Positions 3,205 through 37,700 are shown, counted from the stretch's first letter. The stretch is 64,000 nt of DNA from Cyanobacteria bacterium P01_F01_bin.150 (GCA_039189765.1 JBCCYL010000005.1:32001-96000); one strand, 5' to 3'. The notes: a model not told the origin generated them from the sequence alone. Made by a program: numbers and translations.

Positions 3205-6200
3205 TTACTCCACGGTCAATGGCTCTGCGACGTTAGATTCAAGCTCAGGTTCTCCCCGCTGTTGCCCAGTGCTACAGGGATCGATTAGATCCTCGGAGGA
3301 TGAGCGATAGTTGGCAATTAGGGCCTCTTCGATGGTGAGTATGGCGTTGGATGTGGTACGGATGAGGCGATCGCCTTCCGCATCACAACTATCAAACACT
3401 GCCTCCGCTAAAAATTCTTGATCACTAAATTCGGATGGCGAAGAATCTTCGAGGGTTGAGTCTTCATTCTCTTCTCCAATCTTCTCCCCTGCCACAAGTG
3501 TATCGTCTGAGCTATCTTCTGCCGCTGGATTGGTGTCATCATTTTCGCCAGGGTTCTCTGCAACCGGGTCATCCGGTGCATCGTCAGGAGTCTCTGCAAC
3601 CGGGTTGTCTGTCGGTGTATCGCCAGGGTTCTCTGCAACCAGTTCATCCGTCGGTGTATCGCCAGGAGTCTCTGCAAACGAGTCGTCCGTTGGCGTGTCG
3701 ATGGGATTCTCTGCAACCGGGTCGTCCGTTGGTATATCGATGGGATTCTCTGCAATTGGATCGTTAATAACCGGATTATCTATCGGAATGTCCGTTGGGT
3801 TATCAGCCATTGGATCATCGACTGGAGGGGGTGGTTCTGGTTCAAAAAGACGATTTTGGAGCGAGCCTTGCAAGCTGGCATCTGTTGCAGTGCTGGAGAT
3901 TCCACCAACAGCTCCGCTAGCCTTTTCAGGCAGAGCATCCAACGGCGTTGCGTTAGCAACCAAATCTGCAAAGGGAAATGTATCCTCAGCCGTTTCATCA
4001 AAGGGCGGAATCGGCTCATCGTCGCTGGAGGGAAATGGGTCATTACTAATCAAAAACGGATTGGTCTCGTCGTAATCAGGTCCAACAATAAGTTCTTGTT
4101 CCGGATCGCCTTCAATTTCAATCAGCACAAACCCGCTCTCTGTCGTAACTGGATCAATAATAGGCTCTCGATTTTGCCCATACTTGATGCTAATTGGACC
4201 ATCAATTGATTCAAGACTCACGAGAAAATTACCAAGAAAGATTTGATCCTCAAAACTATCATCTGGATATCCTAAATCAGCTAAATAGTCAGCAAGAATT
4301 GGCGGAGCATCAAACGTCCTATTGCTGGATGAATCTCTAGCATTGAGAGCTTGTAACGATCCACCCGCATCAATATCAATACCTCCTTGCCCAGCCAAAA
4401 TGTAGCCTACTGTGATATCACCTGTCGTAGACGATAAACGAACCAAATTCGCACCTGGGTTTTCGGAATTATTGGATGTATTGCTGAAAATATTGCCAGC
4501 ATTAATATCCCCTACTGCGGCCAATCGAACAGACACTCCTCTAATCGATCGCTCATCAAAACTTTGCGTTAGCCTATCACCAACCGTAATATCGCCACCA
4601 GAGATAATCTCAACAGCGGCATCAGCAATCTCTGTTCCAATGCCCAAAGGATCTGCATCAATAGAGCCAGTATTAATATCACCAGGGGCTGATAGGATAA
4701 CAAAACCATCGGTTGTTTCAGTCTTAATTGAACCTAGATTGATAGTTGCTGGGACTGATGGAGTATTCGAACGATTGAAAATCGTGTCACCTATCTGAGT
4801 TTGACCAGAGATTACAGGATTTTGCAGCACAGTTTCTCCTGCACGTAGTATTAATGCAGAACCACTTGCCAGAGTAACGAAATCCGGATCGTCCCCTTCA
4901 AATGTGCCATTTGCACTGGTAATTTCAATATCGCCGCCCGTTATGCTACCCACAGCCTCAACTTTGAGAGCTGGTCCTCGATAATCCCCAAAATCAACAT
5001 CACCCAATGAGCTAATTAAAGATTGGGAATTAGACGTATAGTCTCCATTTTCTCCTGCCAAGTTTAAGACAGAAAATCCATTGTTAATAAAGCGAGAATT
5101 TCCCTCAATCAACCCATCACTAACAAGTGTAGTCATTCCCCCACTTTGAATCCGAGACTGACGGTTATTGATGGCATTGATCCTGACTCCATCATTGCCT
5201 TGAACAAAAAGATTGCCTCCTGCATCCACAATGGCTTCACCATCTGTTCCTATCCAATCATCAATATTGACAGAGACTTGAGATATTAGCTCCACATCGC
5301 CTCCAGCCAATATTTGATCAGAACCGAGATTCAAATCACTGATGGAGGTAAGAAAAACGTTACCTTGAGTGAGAATATCGTCGAATTCGATAGTGTTGCC
5401 ACTAATGCTCAGATTATCGATACGATTTTCTAGAGTTGAAGCCTCGTCAATTCCAACTTTATCAATACTGATATTTCCACTGCCCGCATTAAGCGTTAAG
5501 CTATGAGGCCCAGTATCAGCACTCAGAAGTGCCCCCTGAACTTCAATATTTCCTTCTCCTAGCCCTGTTGAAATAATAGTATCTTGAGTTAAGGTAATAG
5601 ACTCAAATCCTAACGTTACTAGTCCCTGGTCAGTGATAATATCACCACCTAATCTGATATCCCCAAAGAAACCTGTAACGTCCAAAGACGATAGAGGAAC
5701 ATTGCTGCCAATATCTCCGTTTAGAGAGACTTCTCGTCCATCTATAGTTAAATTGTGAGAGCCGTCAATAGAGCCGTTCACAACAATCCGATCGGATCCA
5801 AATCGACCTAAGTTAAGATCTCCCTCTAGGGTGACTGTCCCATTAATCGTAGTGTCTCCAGGAGCGTAGAACTCGCCTCCAGAAAAAATAGTATTCCCTG
5901 TTATGTCAGCATCAACAAGTAGTTGATTTGATTCACCATTGAATCGAACTTGACCATTTCCTGCATCAATAGGTAAAGAAAAGCCATTAATATTGCCATT
6001 GAACGTGATATTTCCATCTGTAATGCCAGTGCTAGTAATTTGAGTTGTAAAACTCGTGTCCACTTGTCCACTGAGAAAAATATCTCCGCCCTTTGAGTTA
6101 AGGATACCAGCAACATCAATATCACTTGCAAAAATATTAATGTTTCCACCTTCAGTCGATAACGTAGAGGATAGTCCGAGGTAGAATTCCTCTCCTGCTA

Positions 6201-7833
6201 TGAAATTAACCGATTGCCCTGATTGTGTCTTAAACGCGACAGAATCACTTACAGAGATATCTTCTGAAGCACTTAAAAGAATATTAGTGTTGCCAGATAA
6301 TGCTTCTAATGCTTGTACTGAAATTCGAAAGAAATCATTCGTCCCGTTAACATCACCTGCAAGAATTCTGCCATCTGTTACTTGATCATCATCGGATCCG
6401 GTTTGGGTGCTAAAAATGCTAATGTCAGTGGGGTCAAATAGAACGGTTCCAGCTATGCCATTGACGGCCGAGGTATCAACAGTACCGGAAAAGTTTAACT
6501 GTCGATAACCAGAAATTTCGACAAATCCACCATCACCAGAAACCGCTCCACCACGGGCAGCAATATCGCCGTAGAACCCAGTGACATCGTCGGCCCAAAC
6601 GATCGCCTCTCCACCATTCCCCGTCTCCAGCGCATCCACTGTCACCACCGAATTCGTATCCACTAACGTGCGTGATGCAGTAAGCGTGATTCCCTGCCCT
6701 TGGAATTCACCCCCAAGCCAGACGGTACCACCGCCATCGGTTCCTGATGCATCCACCGTGGCATTGAGGAGGGCAACGCGATCGCCCAGCACCTGCACCC
6801 GACCACCAACAATACCCTCCACGGTCGATTCCGGCGGCGCAGATTCCGACAGCGCAATATCAGACGACACATTGGAGGCATCGATGACTCCGGTTGTAAT
6901 CATAGTTCCTGGCGTCGGACTAACGGCTACATCAGACCCCGTTAGAGAAATAGAGCCATCGGCATTAACCATTACATCCGTTGCCCCCGTAGCGCTGCCT
7001 CCGGTTAGTAACGTCGGCAATGTTGCAGGAACAAACGGTAGGGCATTGGGCAACGCATCTACGGGCATCGTTGGATCAAGGGTTTGAAATTCTAAATTTA
7101 GCAATTGGTTTGCTTGGCTAAGGCGAACAATATTGTCCTCCGGCACTGCGGCCAGGGTAATCTGTCCCCCCTCAGTTGCCAATGTCCCCGTATTGACTAC
7201 GGTACCGCCGATTAGGGTGAGGCGATCGCCCCCTCCCACCATCAGTTCGCCCTCATTAACAATGGCACCGGGCCGGATTAGATTGAACCCAAGGCGATCG
7301 GGAGTACCCACCAGCGCTGCGTAGGTATTGGTGCCGACTGCACTAAACCACTCGCTCCCAAACCCAATTCCTGTTGCCGTAGTAGCGGTAAAATCCGCAG
7401 GCACATTTAGACTGGCATTCTCTCCAAAAAACAGCCCTGCCGGATTCATCAGATACAGGTTAGCATCCCCCCCAGTCGCCTGAATAACACCATCAATAAA
7501 CGAGGCATTGCCCCCGACTACTCGGGTCAGAATATTGTCAATATCGGGAGCTGATATAAAGTTGGCAATTTCAGACGGACTCAGACCAAACTGGTTAAGG
7601 CTATGGAAGAGGTTTTTGCCATCTGCGGATAATGTAGAACCTTGGATATCGTAGCGTTGACCGACCTGGGTAATCTGTGTGTTTGTATCCCCTGAAGGGG
7701 TAATCGACTGGGCCAGACTGGGATTGTCTCCAGGACCAAACAGAGCAAACGTTGCACCTAATGTGGCTGTACTTAGAGCAAAAATAGTGAAGGACTTGGA
7801 TGCAAATGATTCTGGAGCAAAATAAATCGACAT
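3205..7833 (-). CDS. TpsA / filamentous haemagglutinin N-terminal domain exoprotein
   Basis: Signal peptide then [18 protein letters not shown] motifs, GGFVEISG and G.VLFDP; beta-helix-like repeats; acidic Pro-rich C-terminal repeats. Confidence 0.95.
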   Translation of the reverse strand: MSIYFAPESFASKSFTIFALSTATLGATFALFGPGDNPSLAQSITPSGDTNTQITQVGQRYDIQGSTLSADGKNLFHSLNQFGLSPSEIANFISAPDIDNILTRVVGGNASFIDGVIQATGGDANLYLMNPAGLFFGENASLNVPADFTATTATGIGFGSEWFSAVGTNTYAALVGTPDRLGFNLIRPGAIVNEGELMVGGGDRLTLIGGTVVNTGTLATEGGQITLAAVPEDNIVRLSQANQLLNLEFQTLDPTMPVDALPNALPFVPATLPTLLTGGSATGATDVMVNADGSISLTGSDVAVSPTPGTMITTGVIDASNVSSDIALSESAPPESTVEGIVGGRVQVLGDRVALLNATVDASGTDGGGTVWLGGEFQGQGITLTASRTLVDTNSVVTVDALETGNGGEAIVWADDVTGFYGDIAARGGAVSGDGGFVEISGYRQLNFSGTVDTSAVNGIAGTVLFDPTDISIFSTQTGSDDDQVTDGRILAGDVNGTNDFFRISVQALEALSGNTNILLSASEDISVSDSVAFKTQSGQSVNFIAGEEFYLGLSSTLSTEGGNINIFASDIDVAGILNSKGGDIFLSGQVDTSFTTQITSTGITDGNITFNGNINGFSLPIDAGNGQVRFNGESNQLLVDADITGNTIFSGGEFYAPGDTTINGTVTLEGDLNLGRFGSDRIVVNGSIDGSHNLTIDGREVSLNGDIGSNVPLSSLDVTGFFGDIRLGGDIITDQGLVTLGFESITLTQDTIISTGLGEGNIEVQGALLSADTGPHSLTLNAGSGNISIDKVGIDEASTLENRIDNLSISGNTIEFDDILTQGNVFLTSISDLNLGSDQILAGGDVELISQVSVNIDDWIGTDGEAIVDAGGNLFVQGNDGVRINAINNRQSRIQSGGMTTLVSDGLIEGNSRFINNGFSVLNLAGENGDYTSNSQSLISSLGDVDFGDYRGPALKVEAVGSITGGDIEITSANGTFEGDDPDFVTLASGSALILRAGETVLQNPVISGQTQIGDTIFNRSNTPSVPATINLGSIKTETTDGFVILSAPGDINTGSIDADPLGIGTEIADAAVEIISGGDITVGDRLTQSFDERSIRGVSVRLAAVGDINAGNIFSNTSNNSENPGANLVRLSSTTGDITVGYILAGQGGIDIDAGGSLQALNARDSSSNRTFDAPPILADYLADLGYPDDSFEDQIFLGNFLVSLESIDGPISIKYGQNREPIIDPVTTESGFVLIEIEGDPEQELIVGPDYDETNPFLISNDPFPSSDDEPIPPFDETAEDTFPFADLVANATPLDALPEKASGAVGGISSTATDASLQGSLQNRLFEPEPPPPVDDPMADNPTDIPIDNPVINDPIAENPIDIPTDDPVAENPIDTPTDDSFAETPGDTPTDELVAENPGDTPTDNPVAETPDDAPDDPVAENPGENDDTNPAAEDSSDDTLVAGEKIGEENEDSTLEDSSPSEFSDQEFLAEAVFDSCDAEGDRLIRTTSNAILTIEEALIANYRSSSEDLIDPCSTGQQRGEPELESNVAEPLTVE
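3540..3810 (-). repeat. Coding tandem repeat (DDPVAENP/ETPxDxPT, 12-13 aa units)
   Basis: Recurring tctctgcaac units at 36-39 bp spacing inside TpsA. Confidence 0.85.
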
Positions 7834-7887
7834 GGTTGACTATGGGGGAATAGGAGGTCACTAGGAAGGCGATATGCGTCTTAAAGT

Positions 7888-8038: not shown

Positions 8039-8226
8039 AACTTGAAGAAGCAGTAGGTAGGCCAAATTAAATTTAAGAGCAAGATGGCTGAAAGCTTCAT
8101 AAGGAGTTAAGGAAACAAAACGTTTTATGATGTGAAAGACATCAGCCAGGGTGTTTGAAGGGTCTCCACATTGATTGTCTAAGGTCATACAGTTGTCGTT
8201 GAGCAGTGGTTGGCTGCGCAAAGCCT

Positions 8227-11200
8227 ATGTCCAATCTGAAATCAGCATATCTGACCCCAATAGTCGAGACCGTAACCTCCATCGGCCTTAGCTGTCTGGG
8301 GATATCTATCGGAGCATTGGGGCTGGGGGTGCCCGCCGCGATCGCCCAAATCACCCCAGACCCCACCCTCGGCCCAGAGTCATCCACCGTGACCAATCAG
8401 CGCAATCAAGGACGAACCGTCATTCAGGGGGGAGCTGAACGAGGCCCAAATCTGTTTCATAGTTTTGATGCCTTTAACGTACCGGAGAATCGATCGGTCT
8501 TTTTCTTTACGGACAATGCCCAGGTTGAAAATATCTTGACTCGGGTGACCGGCAATACGGCATCTGAATTACTCGGAACCCTGGGAACCTTTGGGGGAAA
8601 CGAGCCGAATCTCTTTTTGATTAACCCCAATGGAATTACGGTGGGGGAAAACGCCCAATTAAACGTGGGCGGGTCCTTTTTTGCCACCACAGCAGAGGGG
8701 ATTCAATTTGGAACCCAGGGTGTCTTTAGCGCCCAAAATCCAGCCATTCCATCCAACCTGCTGACCATTGATCCATCCGCCTTTTTATTTGAACAATTGT
8801 CCCCCGATCCCCGACCCTTCATCAATCTTTCGTCCCGCTGGCAAGTCCCCAATGGGCAAACCCTGTTGCTGTTGGGCGGTGATGTGCTGCTGGATGGGGC
8901 ACAGCTAAGGGCAGCAGGGGGACGGGTGGAGATAGGGGCGATCGCCGACCCTGCGGTTATTCCCTTCACCGTTTCAGAGGGCATCAGTATTCCTGATGGG
9001 GTAAAACAGGGGCCGGTGACGATTGGCAACGATTCCACCATTGATGTCGCTTTCACCAACGGTGGCAGCATTAATATGCACGCTGCGACCATCAGCCTCA
9101 CCAATAGTGGATTGAATGCAGGACTGATGGGGCCAGGTGAGCCGAACAATCGGGCGGGCAATATCCAATTGGCGGCCACCGAGCAGATCCAAATTACCAA
9201 TAGTCAAGTGGTCAATGATGTCTCTCGGAATTCAAATGGGACGAGCGGTGATATTACTCTAAATGCTCACCACATTGACATCACCGATCTCTCCATTCTG
9301 AATACCAACCTTTTTGGCACCGGAACGGCGGGCAATATCCAGATTACAGCCAGTGAAGCAACCATACAAAATAGCCGATTGGCCAGTGCTGTAGGGCCTA
9401 ACGCCACCGGAACGGGGGGAACCATTGCCCTTACCACAAATCAATTGGAGATCGTTGATGGTGCTCAACTGTTGGCGAGTACCAGGGGCCAGGGCAATGC
9501 GGGGCTGGTGGACTTACGGGCCGATGGCCCAATTACCATACAAGCAAGTGCGATTTCCAGTGAGGTAGATGTAGGCGCAAATGGCAACGCTGGTGGCATT
9601 CAAATCACGGCCCAGAACCTAACGGTGGTGGACGGCGGCCAACTCTTGGCCAATACCACAGGAGAGGGAGACGCGGGCAATATTCTGATAACGATCAGTA
9701 ACGGTGTGGCATTTGATGGCACCAGCGCCGATGGCCAAGCCCCCAGTGGGGCAACCATTGCGGTTAGTGGGCGGGGACAAGGGGCTGGTGGGCTACTACG
9801 GATTGAGGCTAGCACATTGGATGTCCGCAATGGCGCACAGTTTAATGCCCGTACCCGAGGGGATAGTACAACGACCTTAAGTACCGGGGAATTAATCACA
9901 AATCCAGGACGGGTGGAGATTGAGGTTAGCGATCGCGTCACCTTTGCTGGCGTTAGCGCCGATGAAAACTTCTCCAGTGGGATTATCAGTTCCCTGGAAG
10001 GACGTGGTCAAGGGACAGGAGGACCGATTACTATTATCACGCCAATCCTGGAGGTGCTGGACGGCGCAGGCTTAATTTCCAGTACCAGCGGCGATGGTGA
10101 TGCCGGAAAGTTGGAGATTCGGGCAAGCGATCGCGTTACATTGGCAGACCGACGCACGGGCGGACGATTTTTAAGTCGGATGTCCAGTTCAGTTAATCCC
10201 CAGGGCAACGGCAATGGTGGGGTCATTGATATTCAAACTGAACGGCTAGAGGTCTTCAATGGTGGGCGTCTGGTCGCAGGCACCCTCGGTAATGGGAATG
10301 CGGGAAATGTTACGATTGCGCCTCTCATGCCGCCGCCGGATACTCCTGATGATGCTCAGTTTGAGGTAATTTTTAGCGGCGTCAGTGGGGATGGGCAGTT
10401 TCCTAGCGGCATCTTTAGCACTGTGGAAGCTGGGGCCGTGGGACGGGGTGGCGATATCACCATCGAAACTGAATCCTTATCGGTTCTGGATGGTGCTCAG
10501 TTACGGTCCAACACCGCAGGGATGGGCAGAGCTGGGAATATTACGCTTCAGGGAGAGCAGATCACCTTTACAGATCGCCGCCCAACCTCTTCGGGGCTAA
10601 GTGGAGCAGCCAGTGCCGTAGAGCGGACGGGCCAGGGCCGGGGCGGCAAGATTGAAATTCAAGCCAATGTATTGGAGGTACTGGGGGGTTCTCAGCTTGT
10701 GGCCGGAACCCGAGGCGATGGTCGTGCAGGCAATATTCAGATTATGGCGAGCGATCGCGTCACCTTCCAAGGCACCAGCCAAGATGGAGAAACCATCAGC
10801 GCCGCCCTAAGTGACGTGGATGCCACGGGAATGGGACACGGAGGTAATATTATCGTGGAGACACCGACGTTAGACCTTTTGGACGGAGCGCGGCTGGTTT
10901 CGACGACCCGAGGGGAGGGTGACGCAGGCAATATTAGAATCAATGCCCCGAATCGAGTGACGCTGATCGATACTCGCGATCAGGGACGTTTTTTAAGTGG
11001 GGTCTCCAGTGCCGTTGTGGGTCGAGGGGTGGGGAACGGTGGTCAAATCACCCTAGAAACTGGGATTTTAGAGATGCGGGATGGGTCACAGCTATTGGCA
11101 GGCACTGGTGCCAATGGCAATGCGGGCCGTATCAAGATTGAAGCCGGCGATCGCGTTATTCTGGAGGGCATTAGTCGCGATGGTCAAGACGCCACCGCGA

Positions 11201-12726
11201 TTATCAGTTCCGTGGATGCCCGTGGAGTGGGGAACGGTGGCCTTATTCAGGTGGCAACCAATCAGCTAGACGTCCTCAATGGTGCCCAGTTGGTCGTCAG
11301 TACAACGGGCCAGGGGGATGCCGGACAAATTTTCTTAGATGTGGGCGATCGCGCCGTGTTTTCTGGCACCCATGAAGGCTCTAATGGGGAAGCCCAGTTT
11401 ATTAGCGGGGCCAGCAGTTTGGTTAATCGACGGGGTGAAGGGGCCGGGGGGCCGATTGTGATTAATACAGGGATTTTAGACATCCTCGATGGCGCACGCA
11501 TCAGGGCCAGCACGGCTGGAACAGGAGATGCAGGCCCCATAACGATTCAGGCGGATGAACGGGTAACGTTAAGGGGCAACGGTCCTGATAATTCATTTAG
11601 TCGAATGTCCAGCTCCGTCGGTCGGTCAGGGAATGGCCAAGGGGGGCCGATTCAGATTCAAACCGATGAGTTGGCGGTTCTAGATGGGGCAAGACTATCC
11701 GTTAGCACCCGAGGCAATGGTCGAGGCGGCACCATTAACGCCCAGGTGAGCGATCGCATTACCCTTGATAACGGCACCATTGAAGCCCGCAGCGGTCGTG
11801 ATCAGCGAGCTGGAGATATTGATTTAAGTGCGGACTGGTTTGTGCTGGACAATCAATCGAATATTTTAACCCAGACGCTTTCTGCAAATGGGGGAAATGT
11901 AACCCTAAATGTGGGGAGCTTTTTGCTGTTGCGCGATAACAGTCTGATCTCTACGGAGGCAGGAATTGCGGGGGAGCTTGAAGGCGGGGCATCAGCCGAT
12001 AGTTTTACGGTGACAGGGCGGCAGCAGGCGAATCCAGGAGCGATCGCCCCCGACTCATCCTTCACTCGCAGGACATCCAGGGCGAACAGACAAACAGCCG
12101 CCAGAGGAAACGGGGGCAATATCACCATTAATGCCCGTGATGGGTTTATTGTGACGCTACTGGATGAAAATAGCGAAATTATTGCCAATGCCTTTGAAGG
12201 GAACGGAGGCAATATTAACATTACCGCTATTCGACTGTTTGGCACGGTGAAGAGAGATAGCCCCTCTCCTGAACTACGGGCCAATCGCACCAACGACATT
12301 AGCGCCAGCTCTCGTTTTGCATCTGATGGCATTATCGCAATCCAAAATCTAAATGCGGACCCGATTCAAGGCGCAGTTGCTTTGCCCACTGATACTGCTG
12401 CCCCTCCGTTGAGCCAAGGCTGTGAACCCGGCATTGACGGACGCGGTCGGTTTACTAATACCGAACGAGGGGGGATCCCGTCCAATCCTCTGGGCCCATT
12501 GGAAAGTGCTCGTGGGTGGGAGGATATTTATCCAATCCCGTCGGCCCCGTCGGCCTATGATACAGCGGTGGAGGAACAGGGCGATCGCCCCTCTGAACCC
12601 TCTATTTCACAAGAGATTGCAGAAGGGATTACAGAAGCAGAAGGATGGCAGCGGAACCAACAGGGGCAGGTGGTTCTTGTTCAGACTACCCCCACTAGCC
12701 ATCCAATATTCAATTGTCAGAGCTAG
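8227..12726 (+). CDS. TpsA / filamentous haemagglutinin N-terminal domain exoprotein (likely start ATG 8227; ORF open from 8206)
   Basis: AQITPDPTLG, NLFHSFDAF, NLFLINPNGI; repeated G.AG.I.I...L.V.DGA.L units; cyanobacterial C-terminal ANAF.G.GGNI.I and EAEGW motifs. Confidence 0.95.
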   Translation: MSNLKSAYLTPIVETVTSIGLSCLGISIGALGLGVPAAIAQITPDPTLGPESSTVTNQRNQGRTVIQGGAERGPNLFHSFDAFNVPENRSVFFFTDNAQVENILTRVTGNTASELLGTLGTFGGNEPNLFLINPNGITVGENAQLNVGGSFFATTAEGIQFGTQGVFSAQNPAIPSNLLTIDPSAFLFEQLSPDPRPFINLSSRWQVPNGQTLLLLGGDVLLDGAQLRAAGGRVEIGAIADPAVIPFTVSEGISIPDGVKQGPVTIGNDSTIDVAFTNGGSINMHAATISLTNSGLNAGLMGPGEPNNRAGNIQLAATEQIQITNSQVVNDVSRNSNGTSGDITLNAHHIDITDLSILNTNLFGTGTAGNIQITASEATIQNSRLASAVGPNATGTGGTIALTTNQLEIVDGAQLLASTRGQGNAGLVDLRADGPITIQASAISSEVDVGANGNAGGIQITAQNLTVVDGGQLLANTTGEGDAGNILITISNGVAFDGTSADGQAPSGATIAVSGRGQGAGGLLRIEASTLDVRNGAQFNARTRGDSTTTLSTGELITNPGRVEIEVSDRVTFAGVSADENFSSGIISSLEGRGQGTGGPITIITPILEVLDGAGLISSTSGDGDAGKLEIRASDRVTLADRRTGGRFLSRMSSSVNPQGNGNGGVIDIQTERLEVFNGGRLVAGTLGNGNAGNVTIAPLMPPPDTPDDAQFEVIFSGVSGDGQFPSGIFSTVEAGAVGRGGDITIETESLSVLDGAQLRSNTAGMGRAGNITLQGEQITFTDRRPTSSGLSGAASAVERTGQGRGGKIEIQANVLEVLGGSQLVAGTRGDGRAGNIQIMASDRVTFQGTSQDGETISAALSDVDATGMGHGGNIIVETPTLDLLDGARLVSTTRGEGDAGNIRINAPNRVTLIDTRDQGRFLSGVSSAVVGRGVGNGGQITLETGILEMRDGSQLLAGTGANGNAGRIKIEAGDRVILEGISRDGQDATAIISSVDARGVGNGGLIQVATNQLDVLNGAQLVVSTTGQGDAGQIFLDVGDRAVFSGTHEGSNGEAQFISGASSLVNRRGEGAGGPIVINTGILDILDGARIRASTAGTGDAGPITIQADERVTLRGNGPDNSFSRMSSSVGRSGNGQGGPIQIQTDELAVLDGARLSVSTRGNGRGGTINAQVSDRITLDNGTIEARSGRDQRAGDIDLSADWFVLDNQSNILTQTLSANGGNVTLNVGSFLLLRDNSLISTEAGIAGELEGGASADSFTVTGRQQANPGAIAPDSSFTRRTSRANRQTAARGNGGNITINARDGFIVTLLDENSEIIANAFEGNGGNINITAIRLFGTVKRDSPSPELRANRTNDISASSRFASDGIIAIQNLNADPIQGAVALPTDTAAPPLSQGCEPGIDGRGRFTNTERGGIPSNPLGPLESARGWEDIYPIPSAPSAYDTAVEEQGDRPSEPSISQEIAEGITEAEGWQRNQQGQVVLVQTTPTSHPIFNCQS

Positions 12727-27306: not shown

Positions 27307-30300
27307 TCAACTAACCCCATATAAAACGTTGACGGTTCCTTCCCCGACACCGAGACCTGGAGGAGTAGCGAAGTTTTCTCTGGGAGCACCGATCGCTAAG
27401 TCAAAGGCTCCATTCCCATTGAAGTCACCAGCGCCTAGGCCTGCAGCAAAAACATCACCAGAAACACGACCATTATCAACAAAGCCTTCAGAGATACCTT
27501 CAACACCTGGTGAATTCTGAGACCAAACTTGGTTACCCGCTCGGGTTAAGCCATCAGGTGAGCCATAGATAATATGAGCTTGTCCAGCATTGGTATTTTC
27601 ACCTGGAGCACCAATGGATAGATCATCGTAACCATCGCCATTAAAATCACCAACGACCAAATCACTGCCAAAATCATCTCGAAACTCCGCAGTGTCTTGA
27701 ATACCAGCAGTGTTTTGAGACCAAAACTGATTTCCCGTGGCGGTCAAACCATCACTGGCACCATAAATAATATGAACACCGCCCTCAGCCGCTATGGAAT
27801 TCGAACCATTAATATCTTCATCCGCAACGCCTATGGCTAAATCATCAAATCCGTCATTATCAAAATCACCCACGGCGAGAGCCTCACCAAATCTATCGCT
27901 AAACTCAGCCGTCTCTAAAATGCCAAAGCTATTCTGCGACCACAGTTGATTTCCCGTGGCGGTCAGACCATTGCTGGAACCATAAATCACACTCACGGCA
28001 CCAGCGTTGGCAACGGAGCCAATATCTTCTCCGGGAACGCTAATCGCTAAATCTTCGAAACCATCGTTATCAAAGTCTCCGGCAGCTAGGACGCTCCCAA
28101 ATTCATCGTCTTCATTTTTTCCATTTAAGATCCCAACGCTATCTTGAGACCACAGTTGATTGCCAGTTGCCGTAAGTCCATTCGACGAACCAAAGATAAC
28201 ATTAACGGCTCCTGCATCCAGGTCTTCTCCAGGAACGCCAACCGCTAAATCATCAAAGCCATCGTTATCAAAATCACCAGATGCTAGGGCGCGGCCAAAA
28301 TAGTCACCGCCCAAAGAGAATTCTCCATCTGGGGCTGGATCGCGTTCAGCAGCGTCTTGGATTCCAGGAGAATCTTGAGACCAAAACTGATTTTCAAAAG
28401 ATGATAGACCGAAGATTGAACCGTATATGACGTTAGCACCACCACCATTGGCGATTGAACCAATGTCCTCCTCTGGAATACCCACAACCAAATCGTCAAA
28501 ACCATCGCCGTCAAAATCGCCAGTAGTTAGTTCACTACCAAAAAATTCGCCACTCTCAGCACTGTCTGCAATACCCGGCGAATTTTGAGACCATTGCTGG
28601 CGTCTAGAGGAGGTGAGGCCGCTATTTGAACCATAGATGACGTTTACTTCACCAGCCCTTAGGAGAGAACTAAAGTCTTCTCCAGGAACACCAACAACTA
28701 AATCATCAAACCCATCATTATTAAAATCACCGGATGTCAGGCTAGAGCCAAAACCATCCCCTTCCTCTGAGGTGAGATTTAACCGATCTTGGTTCCACAG
28801 TTGAGAATTTTGGGACGTCAGTCTGGGGGAGTGGCCACTTACAAGCAGAGTATAGTTTTGAGTGACGCCCCTAGGACCACCAATAACGATGTCATAGGTG
28901 CTACTCGGATTAGGATTATCGATCACCACTTGTTCAATATTGTCAACTCGATTCCGCGTCGTTCTGACTGCGGCTGCATTTGGGTTAGACGGATCTAGCG
29001 TCCAAGGATTCCATCTGCTAGTACTACCGTTAGCCTTAGTCTCTACGATGATCATATCGAGATCATTGACCAAGACGGGGGTATTAACGTCCAGCCCTCT
29101 GCCTTGAGGTGTCCCTGCTGGATCGGTCCATACGATGGTGGCTTTAAGGGGATTGCTACCGTCAGAGGCGACTTCAAATGTTTCAATAGATCCAGAGTAT
29201 GTTCTTTCTGAAATAAAGTCAGAGTTACCAGAAATAAGCTCACCATTATTTGACAGGTCTGAATTCACTGCATTTGTGAGGAAATTTGCCGCTGCTGTGG
29301 CATCAACCACTCCCCAACCAAAGGTGTAATCTGGTCCTACATTGCCTGCATCAAAAGCAGTATGGGTTAATAGACCCTTTGTCGTGGCACTGCGGGGTTT
29401 AGTCCCAAACAGGTTTTGATAGTGCTCGATCAACAACACGGCTGTGCCAGTGACATTTGGAGCTGCCATTGAGGTACCGGAAGATGTGCCATAAGTAGTA
29501 TCGGAGGTGCCGACGGATGAGAGCAGGCCGCTGCCATTAGCTACAACGTCAGGTTTAACTCGGCCATCATCGGTTGGTCCCCATGACGAGAAACTTGTTA
29601 TAACCACGTCACGATTGGTGTAGGGGTCCCGTTGTATATCGTTAATAGCCCCTACAACAAGATTATTTTTGGCAGTGCTAAAGTCTGAAATTGAATCGTA
29701 TCCGGTGCCTGCGTTGCCATCACTTCCTGGAGCTGTGACGAGGGCTGTTGGCACCTGATACCAGCCAGCACCAAATCGCCTCCAGTTAACGCCAGGAATA
29801 TTGGGGTCTGAGCTAAAAAAGGTGACAAATGTGGTTCTCCTAGGGCTAAGTCTGTCATTACGTTCGTTACCAGCAGACCAAACGCTCAACAAGTTGGGAT
29901 TACTGAAGAGTACCTGATCTAAGGATTGAGAGATTGCATTATATTTTCCATAATCCACGTCTTCTCGGGAAGAAATGCTATAGTCCTGAAGCCAAACGTC
30001 AATGTTTGAAACTATGCTGCCATTGGTCGTCGTTTGACGAGTTGCAAATTGCCAACCTTGAGCGAATCCGTAGGAGTGATTCGATGCATCAAGTAGTCTC
30101 GCATCTCTGTTGAGTTCAGCTATATCATCTCCGGCGCTATAGCTACGTAAGTTGACTTGGGTTGCCATACCACGAGCGTTATTGTCATCTGTGCTGGGAT
30201 TTGTTGCGATCGCCCCAGTCCCCCCAATCGTCCCTGCTACATGGGTTGCGTGGTTACTAAAGCCCGTTCCAGAGTCAACAATATTTACCCGCCCGTTCAA

Positions 30301-31830
30301 CTGCTCATGGGTATTACGAACTCTCCAACTATTTGTACCCCGCTCCACCGCTTCCCAGATCCCAACGGTTAACCCTGAACCCGTCAAGTTCAAACCAAGG
30401 GAACCACCGGGCTGGAGTTGCTCTGTATTAGTTGTATCTGCAGCCCTAATATTAGTGGGTCTAACAATATTCAAATCATCCGGATGAATACCCTCTCCCA
30501 GGAACCAAACGCCTTCACTGACTTGAATCGGTTCATCTTGCAACCCTAAATCATCTTCTAGGCTAATGGCTTCATCTTCAGGACTGTCTTCCTTTGGAGG
30601 GGTAATTTCAGATCCATCGTCTGGGCTGCCGTCATCTGGGCTGCCGTCATCTGGGGGGTTATTCTCAGATCCATCATCAGGGCTACCGTCATCTGGGGGG
30701 TTATTCTCAGATCCATCATCAGGATTACAGTGCTCTGGGGGGCTATTTTCAGATCCATCATCAGGACTACCGTCCTCTGGAGGGCTATTTTCAGAATTAT
30801 CAATAAGACTGTCGATGTCCACTGTATTGAAATCAACGCCTTTGAGAACGACTAATGATTTCCATTTCTGCCGATCGCCGACTCCATCCACATCGACCTG
30901 TACCACTGTCCGCTTACTTGAGCCTTTAATCCTTACAAAGTCATCAAAAGGAGTATCAGAACGAAAGCGATCGCCCTTAAGAACTCGCGACATATCTAAA
31001 ACATCAGTCCCAACCTCAAAATCAAGAATGACATCAGGTCTATCTTTGAGGTCAGACCGTTTGAATAGGAACGTATCATTACCCAGCCCCCCTCGATGCT
31101 TATCACGGCCCCGACCACCAATGAGTAAGTCATCACCACCTTTACCAATCAATCTATCGTTACCCTTACGTCCTTTCAAAATGTCATCGCCATCTCCACC
31201 AACTAACCTATCGTTACCTTTACTGCCCTTAAGAACAGCATTATCATCACCCCCCCCATCCTTGGGTGGGCTAGACTCGCACCCATCAGTGGGAGGTTCA
31301 ACGATTTGTGAATCTATGATGTTGGCAATGGCAAAGTTGTCCAGAGCAATTTCTTCATTATCCACACCACCGATTTCTGGCCCTTCGGTAACCCTGATTC
31401 GACTAATGGGGGTATCTGCGATAAGGCCAAAGAAAATAGGGTCTGACTCAGTGGCATTAGAGGGGAAAATATTGATTGATGTGGTATCGCCATCGGCAAA
31501 CGTGACATCCACAACAGCGGGGCCTGGCGTATTCGGGTCAAAGGAGGCAATGTCGAAACCGACTGCATTATAAAGTTGGCTGAAGTTAACTTCGTAAAAG
31601 GAATCTTCAGAGACTGAGGCACGATCTAAACCAAATAGACTTGTTCCATCAGACCCTCCAAAAGCAACCAGTCGGGGAAGATTTGAAGTGGCTGTTACCC
31701 CTGGCAAGAATTCAACACCCTCTAAGTTAGAGTTACGTGAGAATCCTTCAAAATCCTGTTCAAAAACAGATTCTAATCCTAATGTGTTGGCATAGGAAAT
31801 GCGATCATTGAATACATTAAATACTGACAT
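27307..31830 (-). CDS. S8 subtilase with RTX Ca-binding repeats and C-terminal FG-GAP (integrin-like beta-propeller) repeats
   Basis: GG.GDD.L.G nonamers; HATHVAGT, SAGN, GR.KPD.VA.G, GTSMAAP; seven GDF...GFDDL..G.P.E repeats. Confidence 0.93.
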   Translation of the reverse strand: MSVFNVFNDRISYANTLGLESVFEQDFEGFSRNSNLEGVEFLPGVTATSNLPRLVAFGGSDGTSLFGLDRASVSEDSFYEVNFSQLYNAVGFDIASFDPNTPGPAVVDVTFADGDTTSINIFPSNATESDPIFFGLIADTPISRIRVTEGPEIGGVDNEEIALDNFAIANIIDSQIVEPPTDGCESSPPKDGGGDDNAVLKGSKGNDRLVGGDGDDILKGRKGNDRLIGKGGDDLLIGGRGRDKHRGGLGNDTFLFKRSDLKDRPDVILDFEVGTDVLDMSRVLKGDRFRSDTPFDDFVRIKGSSKRTVVQVDVDGVGDRQKWKSLVVLKGVDFNTVDIDSLIDNSENSPPEDGSPDDGSENSPPEHCNPDDGSENNPPDDGSPDDGSENNPPDDGSPDDGSPDDGSEITPPKEDSPEDEAISLEDDLGLQDEPIQVSEGVWFLGEGIHPDDLNIVRPTNIRAADTTNTEQLQPGGSLGLNLTGSGLTVGIWEAVERGTNSWRVRNTHEQLNGRVNIVDSGTGFSNHATHVAGTIGGTGAIATNPSTDDNNARGMATQVNLRSYSAGDDIAELNRDARLLDASNHSYGFAQGWQFATRQTTTNGSIVSNIDVWLQDYSISSREDVDYGKYNAISQSLDQVLFSNPNLLSVWSAGNERNDRLSPRRTTFVTFFSSDPNIPGVNWRRFGAGWYQVPTALVTAPGSDGNAGTGYDSISDFSTAKNNLVVGAINDIQRDPYTNRDVVITSFSSWGPTDDGRVKPDVVANGSGLLSSVGTSDTTYGTSSGTSMAAPNVTGTAVLLIEHYQNLFGTKPRSATTKGLLTHTAFDAGNVGPDYTFGWGVVDATAAANFLTNAVNSDLSNNGELISGNSDFISERTYSGSIETFEVASDGSNPLKATIVWTDPAGTPQGRGLDVNTPVLVNDLDMIIVETKANGSTSRWNPWTLDPSNPNAAAVRTTRNRVDNIEQVVIDNPNPSSTYDIVIGGPRGVTQNYTLLVSGHSPRLTSQNSQLWNQDRLNLTSEEGDGFGSSLTSGDFNNDGFDDLVVGVPGEDFSSLLRAGEVNVIYGSNSGLTSSRRQQWSQNSPGIADSAESGEFFGSELTTGDFDGDGFDDLVVGIPEEDIGSIANGGGANVIYGSIFGLSSFENQFWSQDSPGIQDAAERDPAPDGEFSLGGDYFGRALASGDFDNDGFDDLAVGVPGEDLDAGAVNVIFGSSNGLTATGNQLWSQDSVGILNGKNEDDEFGSVLAAGDFDNDGFEDLAISVPGEDIGSVANAGAVSVIYGSSNGLTATGNQLWSQNSFGILETAEFSDRFGEALAVGDFDNDGFDDLAIGVADEDINGSNSIAAEGGVHIIYGASDGLTATGNQFWSQNTAGIQDTAEFRDDFGSDLVVGDFNGDGYDDLSIGAPGENTNAGQAHIIYGSPDGLTRAGNQVWSQNSPGVEGISEGFVDNGRVSGDVFAAGLGAGDFNGNGAFDLAIGAPRENFATPPGLGVGEGTVNVLYGVS
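30595..30800 (-). repeat. Coding tandem repeat PDDGS/ENNP (15 and 45 bp units)
   Basis: Repeated tcagatccatc units in the protease linker. Confidence 0.85.
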
Positions 31831-32823: not shown

Positions 32824-32893
32824 CCTTCTAAAACAGTGACTTCGTTGGTCTACTGAACATTAGGTTGAGCCTCTTCAAAATATGCACACTCGG

Positions 32894-34744
32894 CTAACGC
32901 CCATAGCGCAAATTAAAATAAATTCCTGAATCCTGGAGATTGTCTCCTTTATTTTCCCAGTCCACCAAGGGAATTCCCAAATCAACCCGAAGCTTGAGGC
33001 CGTCCTGGCCCAACACCTGATCAAAAATCAGTCCAAACCCAGTACCACTCAGTAGAGTCGTCCCCGTCAACTCATTGGGATTATTGCCTGAATTCCACAC
33101 TGCCCCTACATCCCAAAAGGGCGCAAGTTGAATAATTGGAGCTCCGGTGGAGTTGCGATTAACCGTGATGCGATCTTCTATGGAAAAGCGTAGGCCGTTG
33201 TCTCCCGATCGCGCATTTTGCCGATATCCCCGTGTAGACTGGCCGCCCCCGATAATAAAACGCTGAGCGGGCAATAAACTATCGGGAGTTAACTGTAGCT
33301 CTCCTTGAATCAATAGGAGATGGTCTTGACTAAGTTGCTGTACCCGTTGTGCTTGGCCCAGCCAACTAAAGAAGTGACCATCAGGGATGGGTTCATCGTT
33401 GGTTGTTGCATCAAATAGCCCTGTGCCAAAGTCAAATTGCGATCGCACCGACCACGCGCCCCGAGAATCTCGCCTGATATAGTCTTGCCCAAAGTTGAGG
33501 ATGCTAGTGCGGCTAAAGGCATCTTCATCAGGTCCAATACCGAAAGGAAAGGAGAGATCGCCAATAAAGGTTTGACCAGACTGATATTTAAACCCCGCTG
33601 ACAGTGCTAATTCTTCTCGGGGCGATCGCACCAAGGGTTGTCGATAGGTTATTTCGTATAGCTCTTGCTCGCCTCGAATATTAAGGTCAATAAACTCCGG
33701 GTCAGTAATATTGAAATTATTGGGAGCAGCCCGTAGTTGAACTGCGCCGTTCATCGCATTGACAGGAATACGATACAGCACATTGTAATTTTCTGCTCCA
33801 CTAGTCGTTGATCGAAGATAGGAAGCAGACAACTCATCTCCATTGCCGGTGAGATTGCGATGGCTCAGGGTCAAACTCACCCTTTCTGACCCCACACTAG
33901 GGGGAGAATAGTTATCAGTACTAAATCCATAGCTAAATGGATTAGCCTCTATAACTCGCACAATAAGCTTACTTTTGCCCTGTTCTCCCGTTGGCTGCAA
34001 ACTGGCTTCAACACTGGCGAAGAGGGGATCGGAGCGTAGCAATCGCAGTTGGTTTTCCAGCCTGGTGCTATTAAATGGAATAGTTGTCCCCAACTGGATG
34101 CGATTCCTGATATAGGACTCTCGAACCCTGAATGACCCCCTAGAAGAATCATCGTTAATGGCATTCGCTAAATTTGCAGTCTCGCTACCCTCACCGTCAC
34201 TGATCTCACCGTCACTGATCTCACCATCGCTGCTCGCACCGTCGCTAATCTCATCATCGTTAGCCTCGTCGTTGTTGCGCTCTTCGGTGGATGTTGGCAG
34301 TTCAATGGGGATAATCTCAATCTCAGTAATCTCTCCCTCAAAAATTTTAATCGTCAAAATACCATCTTGACCAATGGTTGCGCTGGCGACAGGTACGGCA
34401 CGAGTCGTGACATAGCCTCGATTGAGATATAGTTGAGTGATTTCATCCGCAACCTGGCGAATCTTTTCAACGGTTAAATCCTGATTTTCAAACGGTGCTA
34501 GAATCTCGGCCCAATCGTCATCATCAAAAACGGTACTGCCAACAACGTTAATCTGCTGAACTCGAACGGATGGTTCAGCGTTTTGTGGATTATTATCAGA
34601 TTCGTCTGCAACTTCAGAAGAAGAGGAAGACGGTAACTGTGCCATAAATTGACCCCACACAGATTGGTTCAAGTCATGGACAGCAAATCCAAGTAGAACA
34701 GTGAGGGCCGGAACAATAGATACACAGCGGAACACGTTACTCAT
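32894..34744 (-). CDS. ShlB/FhaC/HecB family TpsB outer-membrane transporter (ORF open from 34768)
   Basis: POTRA motifs V.GSTVF and ITQLYL.RGYVTTRA; DNYSPPSVGSER; IGGGQSTRGYRQN; LQDSGIYF. Confidence 0.95.
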   Translation of the reverse strand: MSNVFRCVSIVPALTVLLGFAVHDLNQSVWGQFMAQLPSSSSSEVADESDNNPQNAEPSVRVQQINVVGSTVFDDDDWAEILAPFENQDLTVEKIRQVADEITQLYLNRGYVTTRAVPVASATIGQDGILTIKIFEGEITEIEIIPIELPTSTEERNNDEANDDEISDGASSDGEISDGEISDGEGSETANLANAINDDSSRGSFRVRESYIRNRIQLGTTIPFNSTRLENQLRLLRSDPLFASVEASLQPTGEQGKSKLIVRVIEANPFSYGFSTDNYSPPSVGSERVSLTLSHRNLTGNGDELSASYLRSTTSGAENYNVLYRIPVNAMNGAVQLRAAPNNFNITDPEFIDLNIRGEQELYEITYRQPLVRSPREELALSAGFKYQSGQTFIGDLSFPFGIGPDEDAFSRTSILNFGQDYIRRDSRGAWSVRSQFDFGTGLFDATTNDEPIPDGHFFSWLGQAQRVQQLSQDHLLLIQGELQLTPDSLLPAQRFIIGGGQSTRGYRQNARSGDNGLRFSIEDRITVNRNSTGAPIIQLAPFWDVGAVWNSGNNPNELTGTTLLSGTGFGLIFDQVLGQDGLKLRVDLGIPLVDWENKGDNLQDSGIYFNLRYGR

Positions 34745-34789
34745 AATAGTCTGAGGCGAAATTATCAAGGCAAAATTATCAAGGCAAAA

Positions 34790-37700
34790 TTACCAGGGAT
34801 TACCGATCATGGTAAAGGCAGACCAGTAGAAGGGGTGACTGAGATTCGGATCTCCAATGCTTTCCGAAAGCTCAGAGGGGATATCTAGCTCCAGGCCTGG
34901 TAGACTTAGCCTTCCCTCTCCATAGGAGACATCCCCCCGTAACATCGCAATTTGGGTAAGGCGAAGGGCTTCAGCTTTTAGCTCTGCTTGATTAAGTTGG
35001 CGATAAAATTCCGCCATAAGGGCTAAGGTTCCAGCATCATCTACGTACCAAAGGCTGGCCATGGCGGATTTAACTCCGGCTTGAGCTGCCAACCCTGCAA
35101 AGCCCAGCTCAGCTTCCCGATCGCCCACTGCGGTACGACAGGCACTCAGCACCAGCAGCTTAACAGGGGGATCGTTCCAACCCAATTCACGCACTTCGTC
35201 GAGTCCCAGCTTTTCATCCCAGAGTTGGATAAAGGAGTTTTCCACATCCCCCGCTCGGAAATCTCCATGGGTGGAAAGATGAACAATACCATAGGGATTC
35301 GCTTGGCGTTCTTCAATCAGTTTTTCTCGGGTAAAATCCTCATTAAGGAAAGAGTTTCCTTGCCACAAACTATCGGTTAAGACAGAGACTTCAACGGGGG
35401 CAGACTGCAAGTCTGATAGCTTGTCATCGCCAGGAAAGGTTGATGCTCCCATCGCTAAGACTTGAGCATCTTGCAGATCGACCAAACGAGTATCGGTGAG
35501 ACTTAAGCTAGGCATTAAGCCCGTGCTGTATTGTTCTATCAGATATTGCTCCCCATCGTGGAGGGCCGCAAAGGGCAAAGAACGCAGCCCTTCATCGGCA
35601 ATAAAGACCAGGTTTTCCACGGCTTCTGCGTCCAGGTCTGCCTGTAGGGGCGTAATCAACCATTCGTACAGTTGCTGAGCAGCCGGGAGAAAGCTTAAAC
35701 GGCCTCTTCGGACATCGATCTGGTCCTTGATTTTGGCATGGAACGTATCGACGACCGCTAAGACGTTTTCACGGGTAGCTCCAGGGACTCGGTAGCGGAC
35801 GGGTTGTCCATCTGGCGTGACCAAAACAAGTTCTAGTTCATCCCCCAGCCCCTCTTCATCAACGGATACGACAGATTCATTATCGGCATTGGTGGTAATA
35901 TCGACATTGAATTCTACGGGGACAAAGTTGGCATAAATTACGGCGGGGCGAATGCCAGAGATATCGGCGATTTCTCCCAAGGCATCACAGGTATCTACTA
36001 GGCTTTGGCCTCCGACACCCGATGACTGGCCCAGGTATTCTTCAAATTCACGGGTGTACTTTTCATCAATATCGGCAACTCCAGTATCAATGGGCGCACA
36101 TAAGCCTTCTGTTTGGATTGGGGGGATGGGCGGATTGGGGGGCGGCTCAGGGGGGCCAGGGGGTTCAGGAACGGAAATAAGTTGAATATTCGGATTTTCA
36201 GTGTAGGTAAAGGGATATTCCCGAAAGTCTAGACTCGCTTCGCCTGTGGCAATCCCTCCGGCGGTGCCGTTGACCCCAGCATCACCCACAATAAATGGAA
36301 TATCGCTGTCTCCACCATGGCGGATGGTGACTGAATCTCCGGTGCCGTTGGCTCCCCCAGTGGTGGCAATACTGTTGCCGCTGGGATTCCTGGCGGTTTG
36401 GGTACCGGGAATAATGCCTGTGGCCCGGAAGAATCGTTCGGTGGTGATATCCACGGTGCCGCCGCCTGCGGTGCCACGGGCATCAATAAATTCCACTTCA
36501 ATATCATTTTCAGGATCGAGAAATACATCTCCGCCTTGTCCTGCTAAACTTTCGGTGTCGATCGCCCCTGTAGTAATGGAGGTGATGGCCTGAATGGTGA
36601 CATCGCCCCCATCGGTTCCTTCAGTAATGATGTCATTGACGGTTACGATGCCGTTGCTAATTAGGCTAACGGGACCACCTGGACCAGCAACCGAAGATGT
36701 ATTGAGGGTGCTGTTTTCAGCCTGGATATTTTGGTTTTGGCTGGTGAGGGCGATCGCCCCTGCATTAATATCACCACTAACGGTTAAATTACCGTTGGTA
36801 GTGGCAGTAAAGGTTCCACCCACCAAAGACTGCCCAAGGGTTGCAATATCGGCGGTTAAAGTAGCGTTGCCATTATCCCCCGTCGTGTTCAGGCTAATGG
36901 TCCCTGTGGCAGTAGTTTGATCTAAAGCAATATCAGCATCGGGTGCAGCGGTGATAAAAGTGCTATTGCCGCCAACAGTAACGACATCGTTATCAGTGAT
37001 ATTGCCTGCGGTAGCGGTGACCGTTAAATCACCGCCCACAGTGGAAAGGCCAAAGATGAGGTCAGTAGCATTAGTAATTTGGACATCCGCATCGTTTCCT
37101 GTGGTGTTGGTGCTAACCGTTCCAAAAGCATTGAGCTGATCCAGTTGAATACCAGCGTTGGTTTTAGCGGTCGTAAAGGTACTATTGCCCCCTACGGTAA
37201 CGGTATCGCTATCGGTGATACTACCTGTAGTGGCCGTGGCCGTTAAATCACCGCTCACGCTAGAAGGACCAAGGGTGAGGTCGGCGGCATTGGTAATTTG
37301 GCCATTCCCATCCCCTGTAGTATTGATGCTAATCGCTCCATCAGTGTTGAGCTGATCAAGTTGAATATCGGCGTTAGTTTCAGCGGTCGTAAAGGTGCTA
37401 TCGCCCTCGACGGTAACGGTATCGCTATCGGTAATATCGCCAGTGGTGGCAGTGGCGGTTAAATCACCGTCCACGCTAGAAGAACCAAAGGTGATGCCGT
37501 TGGCATTGGTGATTTGGACATCCCCATTGTTCCCTGTAGCGTTAGCGCTAATCGTTCCAGAGACATTGAGCTGATCCAGTTGAATATCAGCGTTGGGTTC
37601 AGTGGTGGTAAAGGTGCTATCGCCCCCTACCGTAACGATATCGCTATCGGTAATACTGCCCGTAGTCGCAGTGGCCGTTAGATCCCCGCCCACAGAAGAA

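Follow-up and report, generated by a model that had tools for sequence, protein, structure and literature searches.

A cysteine-paired C-terminal tail of cyanobacterial TpsA exoproteins as the probable docking segment of exported TPR-CHAT proteases

The exoproteins (TpsA) of two-partner, or type Vb, secretion systems may be held by their C-terminus at the pore of the partner protein, TpsB. According to passages of a review (PMC5422565), HMW1 and HxuA are fixed in the TpsB pore at their C-terminus by an anchor domain containing a disulfide, and LapG cuts CdrA within its periplasmic tail; the introduction of a further study (bioRxiv 10.64898/2026.07.13.738186) describes the cysteine hook of CdrA and its TAAG site. 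As these parts of the two sources present it, the CdrA/CdrB/LapG (LapD) system of Pseudomonas aeruginosa combines a type Vb exoprotein, whose C-terminal Cys-bearing module is held at TpsB, with a periplasmic cysteine protease which releases the adhesin. The subject of the present study is a stretch of 64,000 nucleotides (nt) from Cyanobacteria bacterium P01_F01_bin.150 (GCA_039189765.1 JBCCYL010000005.1:32001-96000), the whole of which is called the window and in which all positions are counted, and in particular the C-terminal ends of three TpsA proteins encoded there, here named A, B, and C, together with the CHAT proteins fused to or encoded beside them. The initial annotation of the window had appealed to the disulfide anchoring of HMW1 and CdrA and to the release of CdrA by LapG, a precedent which the review passages uphold, and had proposed that the same tether operates in all three proteins.

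The cysteine pairs at the ends of A, B, and C are real but are part of three different C-terminal architectures, not one device: the pair of B is the hallmark of a family, that of C is a clade-specific staple, and that of A is an orphan. The proposed tether is supported for B, where the pair is near-invariant, CHAT neighbours carry export signals, docking is predicted and natural fusions occur, so that a logic like that of CdrA/LapG is plausible; as a device common to the three it is not supported. For the stand-alone TpsA proteins, among them B, we propose at a rough probability of 0.55 that the tail is a periplasm-retained, disulfide-closed docking segment and the probable substrate of an exported protease composed of tetratricopeptide repeats (TPR) and a CHAT domain. 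The observed basis of this proposal is the conservation of the tail, the synteny, two kinds of fusion, the export signals, a complex prediction which passes its threshold, and the presence of two VKOR homologs in the genome, from which we infer the disulfide, the periplasmic retention, the cleavage and its site, and the release.

The closest analogue is CdrA-LapG, the parts of which are unrelated to those found here. As in that system, a terminal Cys pair is accompanied by an exported cysteine protease and, within the same cassette, by a membrane sensor, all of these being known here from sequence alone. In contrast to it, the protease is a TPR-CHAT protein (caspase-like, PF12770), the motif is G-R-G-G-L-P rather than TAAG, the loop between the cysteines spans 80-121 residues, and the partners are DUF928 and CHASE2 proteins in place of the cyclic di-GMP receptor LapD; no sequence relation was found. 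The loops of HMW1 and CdrA are short, unlike that of B, which is mostly predicted to be disordered. In form, it is the short C-X36-C knob of A, behind a long acidic Pro-rich linker, that comes closest to HMW1/HMW1B and HxuA of Haemophilus influenzae, and on this slight likeness A is perhaps the most HMW1-like of the three; the review passages name no protease partner for HMW1. B and its neighbouring protease, G, may work like a LapG-type release system without being a member of it. The theme of a Cys-anchored, protease-released type Vb adhesin is already known, and the cyanobacterial version would be a variant of it.

TpsA B (plus strand, 8206-12726; 1506 amino acids (aa)) consists of a TPS domain at residues 47-249, a passenger, and a tail module formed by the last 170 aa (12214-12723). 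Apart from two leader cysteines (C4 and C30), its only Cys are the tail pair: C1406 (Cys1; 12421-12423; alignment column C70), which is the invariant first Cys of the tail, and C1504 (Cys2; 12715-12717), two residues from the C-terminus, the two being spaced as C-X97-C. The consensus of the tail begins as ..DITASS.FG..G.V.I..p.vDP..gl..LP...vD.s..i...C......s.F.vTGRGGLP..P......W.D and continues, after a variable linker, as ivEAqGW.....G.V.L.A........C, upon which the protein ends. In the same genome, 51 of the 52 stand-alone TpsA longer than 700 aa carry a Cys at 70-167 residues from the C-terminus and a second no more than 14 residues from it, the exception being A, and 49 of the 52 pass the profile of the tail module (E < 1e-5), which matches neither A nor C. 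A profile of 21 tails (alignment A1, with B as first row) compared with 1.84 billion representatives gave 10108 matches at E <= 1e-3, 6636 at E <= 1e-10, and 1511 at E <= 1e-30, the strict count being the safer one because the profile looks like beta-helix repeats in its N-terminal part. Exactly two Cys lie in the tail module of 149 of the 150 best representatives, at a median spacing of 98 (range 80-121) and with the last Cys a median of 6 residues (range 0-34) from the protein end; the passenger is devoid of Cys in 85 of the 93 of these that exceed 700 aa. Two Cys within the last 170 residues were also found in 29 of the 29 best loci from other genomes, and the expectation that the pair be conserved in homologues is borne out for B. 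The G-R-G-G motif is 93-98% conserved, and 81 of the 301 genomes in a sample of the phylum, and 52 of its 134 genera, encode the module.

The Pfam and NCBIfam matches are confined to the TPS domain and leave the tail module without a family, and the nearest clusters to the tail in the ESM Atlas are cyanobacterial and have no Pfam family. HxuA is among the solved structures; the tail profile showed no similarity to any PDB chain sequence, the only match being unrelated (E = 0.86), in a comparison that did not include the CdrA and HMW1 sequences themselves. Judged by its sequence, the tail of B is a large, unannotated C-terminal module of cyanobacterial TpsA proteins. It is predicted to be mostly disordered and not a globular domain: AlphaFold2 models of it reached a predicted local distance difference test score (pLDDT) of 53.6 with 21 sequences and 60.4 with 70, and the beta-hairpin EAxGW..G.V.L (in B, EAEGW..G.VVLV at residues 1477-1493; 12634-12684) is the sole confident element (block pLDDT 83-90). 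Conserved motifs within an extended, non-globular segment point to an element for docking or threading. One such motif, at residues 1420-1444 of B (ERGGIPSNPLGPLESARGWEDIYPI; 12463-12537), is predicted to sit within the groove formed by the TPR of G.

The gene for G (plus strand, 12744-15827) follows that of B after a gap of 17 nt and encodes a TPR-CHAT protein of 1027 aa with an N-terminal membrane anchor (residues ~65-88, after RRKGR), a TPR region, and a CHAT domain at residues 736-1025 (PF12770, E = 7.6e-59). A CHAT gene on the same strand opens at most 600 nt downstream of 10 of the 52 stand-alone TpsA of this genome; nine of these end in the tail module, and the tenth is A, with its neighbour F. 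Three further stand-alone TpsA are followed by TpsB and then CHAT, and another 15 TpsA of the genome are fused to CHAT. The recurrent gene orders are [TpsA-tail]n, TPR-CHAT, DUF928, CHASE2 for the stand-alone proteins and CHASE2, DUF928, TpsA-CHAT for the fusions. Among 40 tail-bearing TpsA from other genomes (27 with an open frame longer than 1300 aa and 13 short ones, with 4.5 kb downstream taken for each), 14 have a CHAT gene on the same strand within that distance, in 12 cases opening within 250 nt, and DUF928 and CHASE2 often come after it. The motif ..EL..FF..C also goes with the tail, since 17 of the 25 CHAT proteins of this genome that possess it lie at most 5 kb from a tail module or are fused to one, as against 2 of the 63 without it.

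In all 22 TPR-CHAT proteins encoded adjacent to a TpsA (10 from this genome and 12 from others), the 15-residue window of highest hydrophobicity falls within the first 110 residues, and the export signal was called from this Kyte-Doolittle window, which scored 1.73-2.89 and above the rest of each protein. The residues corresponding to H883, H887 (as H887-G888), and C933 of G are invariant in the 22 (alignment A3); C933 (15540-15542, plus strand), in the sequence LSAC, is the presumed catalytic Cys, and the invariance of the catalytic His and Cys argues for an active CHAT protease. Equally invariant is a non-catalytic Cys, C655 (14706-14708, plus strand), within the motif LQLAEL.NFF..aC. A Cys of this type is kept in 22 of 22 TpsA-adjacent and 29 of 29 fused TPR-CHAT forms.

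Two kinds of natural fusion involve the tail. TpsA-tail-TPR-CHAT fusions form 29 database clusters in all, with two proteins of this genome (on contigs C6 and C138) among them; the TPR region begins ~10 residues past the hairpin, and the Cys present from the tail onward in all 29 are Cys1, the equivalent of C655, and the catalytic Cys, one cluster having a fourth. Cys2 is missing from every one of these clusters, whilst Cys1 is retained down to ~30% identity, and it is this retention which is more telling than the loss. In the second kind, TpsA-tail-TpsB fusions (6 clusters), both tail Cys are kept and a POTRA domain follows ~40 residues past Cys2 with no signal peptide between, so that in these proteins the C-terminal end of the tail must lie in the periplasm. 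P0323, P0333, P0362, P0369, P0384, and P0389 are such single-chain proteins, of 1314-1974 aa, with the order TPS domain, passenger, tail, POTRA, and ShlB barrel, an autotransporter-like form of the two-partner system.

A complex of G (residues 118-1027, alignment A3) with the tail of B (residues 1417-1506, alignment A2, a construct from which Cys1 falls outside) was predicted with a complex score (ipSAE) of 0.78, compared with 0.01 for the best of three controls. Among solved complexes 116 of 157 attain the pass mark, and among mismatched pairs 2 of 215, counts which are approximate as own alignments were used; the runs share at least 32% of contacts, with a partner pLDDT of at least 41. On the tail, the confident interface comprises residues 1420-1444 and 1503-1504, thereby including Cys2, and on G it comprises TPR residues 119-606, residues 653-655 and 657 around C655, and R952, which is 19 residues past the catalytic Cys. 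The best-defined contacts are those of L1432 and E1433 on residues 361-473 of G and of W1438 on residues 217 and 254-258, a region in which N258 is nearly invariant. The motif RGG(L/I)P..P..W.D is predicted to occupy the TPR groove, and the tail peptide of the predicted complex runs antiparallel to the TPR array, which would bring R1421-G1423 near the CHAT part.

In the mechanism that we propose for B and its relatives, the tail would be the last part to reach TpsB and would stay in the periplasm, and a Cys1-Cys2 disulfide would close it into a loop of ~100 residues. The tail would serve as the docking site, and probably as the substrate, of the adjacent exported protease G, the TPR superhelix of which would clamp RGG(L/I)P..P..W.D and so bring the near-invariant G-R-G-G beside the caspase-like domain. 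Separase cuts after Arg, and it is for this reason that the candidate cut is put after the Arg of G-R-G-G (R1421-G1422 in B), a guess by analogy with the Arg-specific proteases of clan CD. The outcome would be a control of surface retention resembling that of CdrA/LapG and built from unrelated parts.

Several observations weigh against this mechanism. The fusions may stem from few events, in which case 29/29 and 6/6 overstate their independence, and the deletion that gave rise to the TPR-CHAT fusions may have removed Cys2 incidentally. Both Cys are kept in the TpsA-tail-TpsB fusions although no stopper is needed there, so the pair must do more than block passage, or do something else. The complex score is a measure of model confidence, and with TPR-peptide complexes being common in the PDB the pass may partly reflect general likeness; moreover, the construct lacked Cys1, and the tail residues which meet C655 or R952 are not resolved in it. 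No CHAT gene adjoins 42 of the 52 stand-alone TpsA of this genome, most of which bear the tail, and action in trans must therefore be assumed. Finally, a disordered, disulfide-closed loop might pass the TpsB pore as a hairpin.

A bolder extension of the docking mechanism, to which we give little credence, treats the tail disulfide as a reactive handle. The docked protease would swap Cys1-Cys2 for Cys1-C655, covalently capturing the periplasmic end of the filament, and would then cut G-R-G-G after the Arg, with release gated by proteolysis and redox under a DUF928/CHASE2 sensor. This idea draws on the facts that Cys1 is always kept, that Cys2 is kept when the TPR-CHAT protein is separate, even with TpsB fused behind it, that C655 is kept throughout (22/22 and 29/29), and that the C655 segment and Cys2 of the tail both fall in the confident predicted interface. 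A two-chain product linked through Cys1 and C655 would, if real, be the equivalent of the natural fusions.

The alternative nearest to the initial annotation is that one cysteine hook of the HMW1/CdrA type tethers all three TpsA in the TpsB pore, with CHAT as a periplasmic protease which releases the adhesin or reports on it. Much of what had suggested this holds good. Translation of the three open reading frames (ORFs) and codon mapping place the cysteines where they had been reported: A has two Cys in all, C1483 (3385-3387) and C1520 (3274-3276), forming C-X36-C, and C has C2249 (36098-36100) and C2286 (35987-35989), also C-X36-C, in addition to C8, C27, and C29 in its leader and C2569 (35138-35140) in the CHAT motif LSAC. 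A Pro-containing stretch does precede the first Cys in all three pairs. The passengers, of 1357-2205 residues, are indeed free of Cys, where 13.6, 12.8, and 20.8 would be expected in A, B, and C from the genome-wide frequency of 0.0094 (6517 ORFs of at least 150 aa); with Poisson P values of 1e-6, 3e-6, and 9e-10, respectively, this absence is not due to chance. Each of the three is fused or adjacent to CHAT, the precedent of HMW1, HxuA, and CdrA is real as far as the passages cited above describe it (PMC5422565; bioRxiv 10.64898/2026.07.13.738186), and C-X36-C is kept in the only homolog of A.

A hook common to the three is nevertheless unlikely. The pair of C is lacking in 107 of the 120 homologs and in 7 of the 15 paralogous fusions, the tail of B is a different and far longer module, no TpsB adjoins A or B in a genome with 11 TpsB for 73 TpsA, and the tail profile found no relative among PDB sequences. 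The likeness of A to C, on which the idea partly rested, is confined to the spacing: the aligned EE.L and L(I/V)D(P/T)C that had been pointed out are weak, as the loops share 5 of 36 identities at fixed register compared with a shuffle mean of 2.5 (P = 0.10; P = 0.03 with BLOSUM62), and the tail of A scored negative bits against a pre-CHAT profile of 121 fusion proteins. Homology of the two loops was rejected on these grounds, and the equal spacing should be treated as coincidence.

Fusion C (minus strand, 34790-42844; 2684 aa) is made up of a TPS domain, Gly-rich and DUF5649 repeats, a Pro-rich linker, a pre-CHAT extension, and a CHAT domain (residues 2387-2682; 34799-35686; PF12770, E = 5.5e-69), and has neither TPR nor tail module. 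Its C2249-X36-C2286 loop (35987-36100) lies within the conserved N-terminal extension of CHAT (helix motif ..F..Y.G), where it aligns with the helix-loop motif ..e.fT.eFe.YlG......sL.e.r..L..Ie..tG.kPAliY. Seven paralogous fusions and a stand-alone, exported CHAT protein on contig C27 have that motif too, none of them with Cys at either site. Among the best 120 of 1986 homologs, both Cys are present in 13 (spacing 32-36), which are close relatives of C, one alone in none, and neither in 107; at the second position, 75 have R and 26 have Q (101 together). The catalytic C2569, by comparison, is kept in all 120 and is the sole Cys beyond the leader in 38, and in the 7 paralogous fusions without the pair it is again the only one. 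The conservation that the proposed tether called for is absent from the family of C. The strict 13/0/107 co-occurrence points to a real disulfide in that clade and equally to something other than a general hook, which argues for a disulfide staple restricted to one lineage, within the N-terminal extension of CHAT. The stopper in C, if there is one, is likely to be the folded CHAT domain itself rather than the pair. A parallel exists in the prodomain of FhaB in Bordetella, a C-terminal part of a TpsA, of ~1200 residues, which stays inside the cell or in the periplasm while secretion proceeds and is afterwards cleaved off by proteases; it is not known to be a protease itself or to have a Cys pair. 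The CHAT domain fused to C could play a comparable role.

The stand-alone protein of contig C27 (2295-3713, minus strand; 472 aa) has a hydrophobic N-terminal segment together with the pre-CHAT motif of the direct TpsA-CHAT fusions, and looks like an exported free form of this CHAT subfamily. Many TpsA-CHAT homologs of C (e.g., P0006, P0007, P0009, and P0020) have passenger matches to glycosyltransferase family 2 (PF00535, PF13641, and PF10111), with extra Cys near the N-terminal part.

TpsA A (minus strand, 3205-7833; 1542 aa) carries a TPS domain, its Cys-free passenger, acidic Pro-rich repeats, and an orphan tail, in which the C1483-X36-C1520 loop (3274-3387) stands 22 residues from the end and outside the tail-module family. 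The last 340 residues of A have a single database homolog, P0124, in which C-X36-C and LTI[DE]E.L are kept at 130 residues from the end, so that conservation of the pair can be followed in this one homolog. A search with the tail of A found none in 16 other genomes of the same order, and phmmer searches with the loops of A and P0124 gave nothing else in the genome below E = 0.04. Ahead of the tail are ~170 residues of acidic Pro-rich near-repeats (..DNPVAENPIDIPTDDPVAENP..; A ~1280-1445, window 3500-4000), which could form a long extended spacer. In the proposed scheme, A would present this orphan tail with a C-X36-C knob of its own, followed by a different TPR-CHAT protein, F (minus strand, 739-3201; 820 aa; PF12770, E = 2.3e-66), the gene of which starts 3 nt past the stop of A. 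F has a signal-peptide-like start, and its only Cys, C733, is at the expected catalytic place; it belongs to a different TPR-CHAT subfamily. The idea of A as a split TpsA-CHAT fusion was rejected in view of this different subfamily and of the signal peptide that F has of its own.

It is also conceivable, and in our judgement improbable, that the pairs are structural disulfides of fully secreted TpsA proteins, oxidised outside the cell to cap the C-terminus, and that TPR-CHAT is a maturation factor or chaperone acting in transit, or an unrelated member of the cassette. The disulfide-type constraint shown by the 13/0/107 co-occurrence in the family of C fits any oxidising compartment, and a tail that is predicted to be disordered might thread a pore. 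This explanation nevertheless leaves four things unaccounted for, namely the position of Cys2 at a median of 6 residues from the end in 150 representatives, the fusion of TpsB directly behind Cys2, by which the end is put in the periplasm, the export signals, without a TPS domain, on the docking partner, and the passing complex prediction. Least probable of all is that TPR-CHAT binds the tail without cutting it, as a periplasmic anchor or as a signalling adaptor reporting filament engagement to DUF928/CHASE2, since, for all that the predicted interface is mostly TPR groove, that the cassette recurs with DUF928 and CHASE2, and that natural fusions join tail and TPR-CHAT permanently, the catalytic His and Cys are invariant in the 22 adjacent proteins, the Cys is kept in 120 of 120 direct fusions, and G-R-G-G is so highly conserved (93-98%).

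The arrangement of a TPR region ahead of a caspase-like CHAT domain with a His/Cys dyad is shared with Csx29 of the type III-E CRISPR 'Craspase', HetF, and separase, in which the TPR part recognises the partner or substrate. Those proteins are cytoplasmic or nuclear, whereas signal peptides or membrane anchors mark the TPR-CHAT proteins described here, which are linked to type Vb secretion. Within the cassette of C, the protein encoded at 44109-46544 resembles the architecture of the caspase-CHASE2 (EACC2-caspase-CHASE2) proteins, which Kaur et al. (2021, eLife, PMC8195603) present as systems of conflict or immunity; hemagglutinin and two-partner secretion have 0 occurrences in that paper. In the library searched, no paper brings together the CHAT domain and two-partner secretion, and none links that domain to filamentous hemagglutinin in cyanobacteria; a search on two-partner secretion TpsA in cyanobacteria gave no title on cyanobacterial TpsA tails among the matches listed, and only work on WD40 proteins turned up for DUF928.

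The genome around the window comprises 10.6 Mb in 350 contigs, and the best protein matches of the window are to marine filamentous cyanobacteria. The parts of the cassette are extremely expanded in it, with 73 TPS-domain ORFs, 88 CHAT ORFs (15 of the genome's proteins being TpsA-CHAT fusions), 44 CHASE2 and 35 DUF928 ORFs as against 11 TpsB, as counted for the last three families with profiles built from the window's own proteins. Contig C113 holds eight or nine TpsA genes in a tandem array. In the window, the TPS domains of A, B, and C match PF05860 (E = 2e-39, 9.7e-43, and 1.4e-35, respectively) and also TIGR01901. The gene order around fusion C is CHAT/CHASE2, DUF928, TpsA-CHAT, TpsB, all on the minus strand: a CHASE2-domain protein that also matches CHAT weakly (44109-46544) and a DUF928 protein (42950-43978), both recurrent partners in the cassette, precede C, and TpsB (32894-34768; POTRA_2 and ShlB barrel) lies directly downstream of it. 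Elsewhere in the window are a 1703-aa protein (54824-59935, minus strand) in which an eCIS core domain (PF13699, 5.6e-29) is combined with a Tox-GHH HNH/EndoVII nuclease toxin domain at the C-terminus (7.4e-14), a Baseplate_J-like protein (22573-24999), and a 1507-aa protein (27307-31830, minus strand) with RTX repeats, a subtilase S8 domain, and seven FG-GAP repeats.

Filaments exported by two-partner secretion have undergone a huge expansion in filamentous cyanobacteria, and how they are held at or shed from the cell is almost uncharted. The tail module, with more than 1500 clusters at E <= 1e-30, two invariant Cys, and a predicted docking motif, offers a testable handle on this question. 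If the proposed docking and cleavage are true, they would constitute a second, independently built regulated release of a type Vb adhesin besides CdrA-LapG, and would assign a first substrate to the TPR-CHAT proteases that are abundant outside the cytoplasm of cyanobacteria, as well as offering a route to what the co-encoded CHASE2 sensors control.

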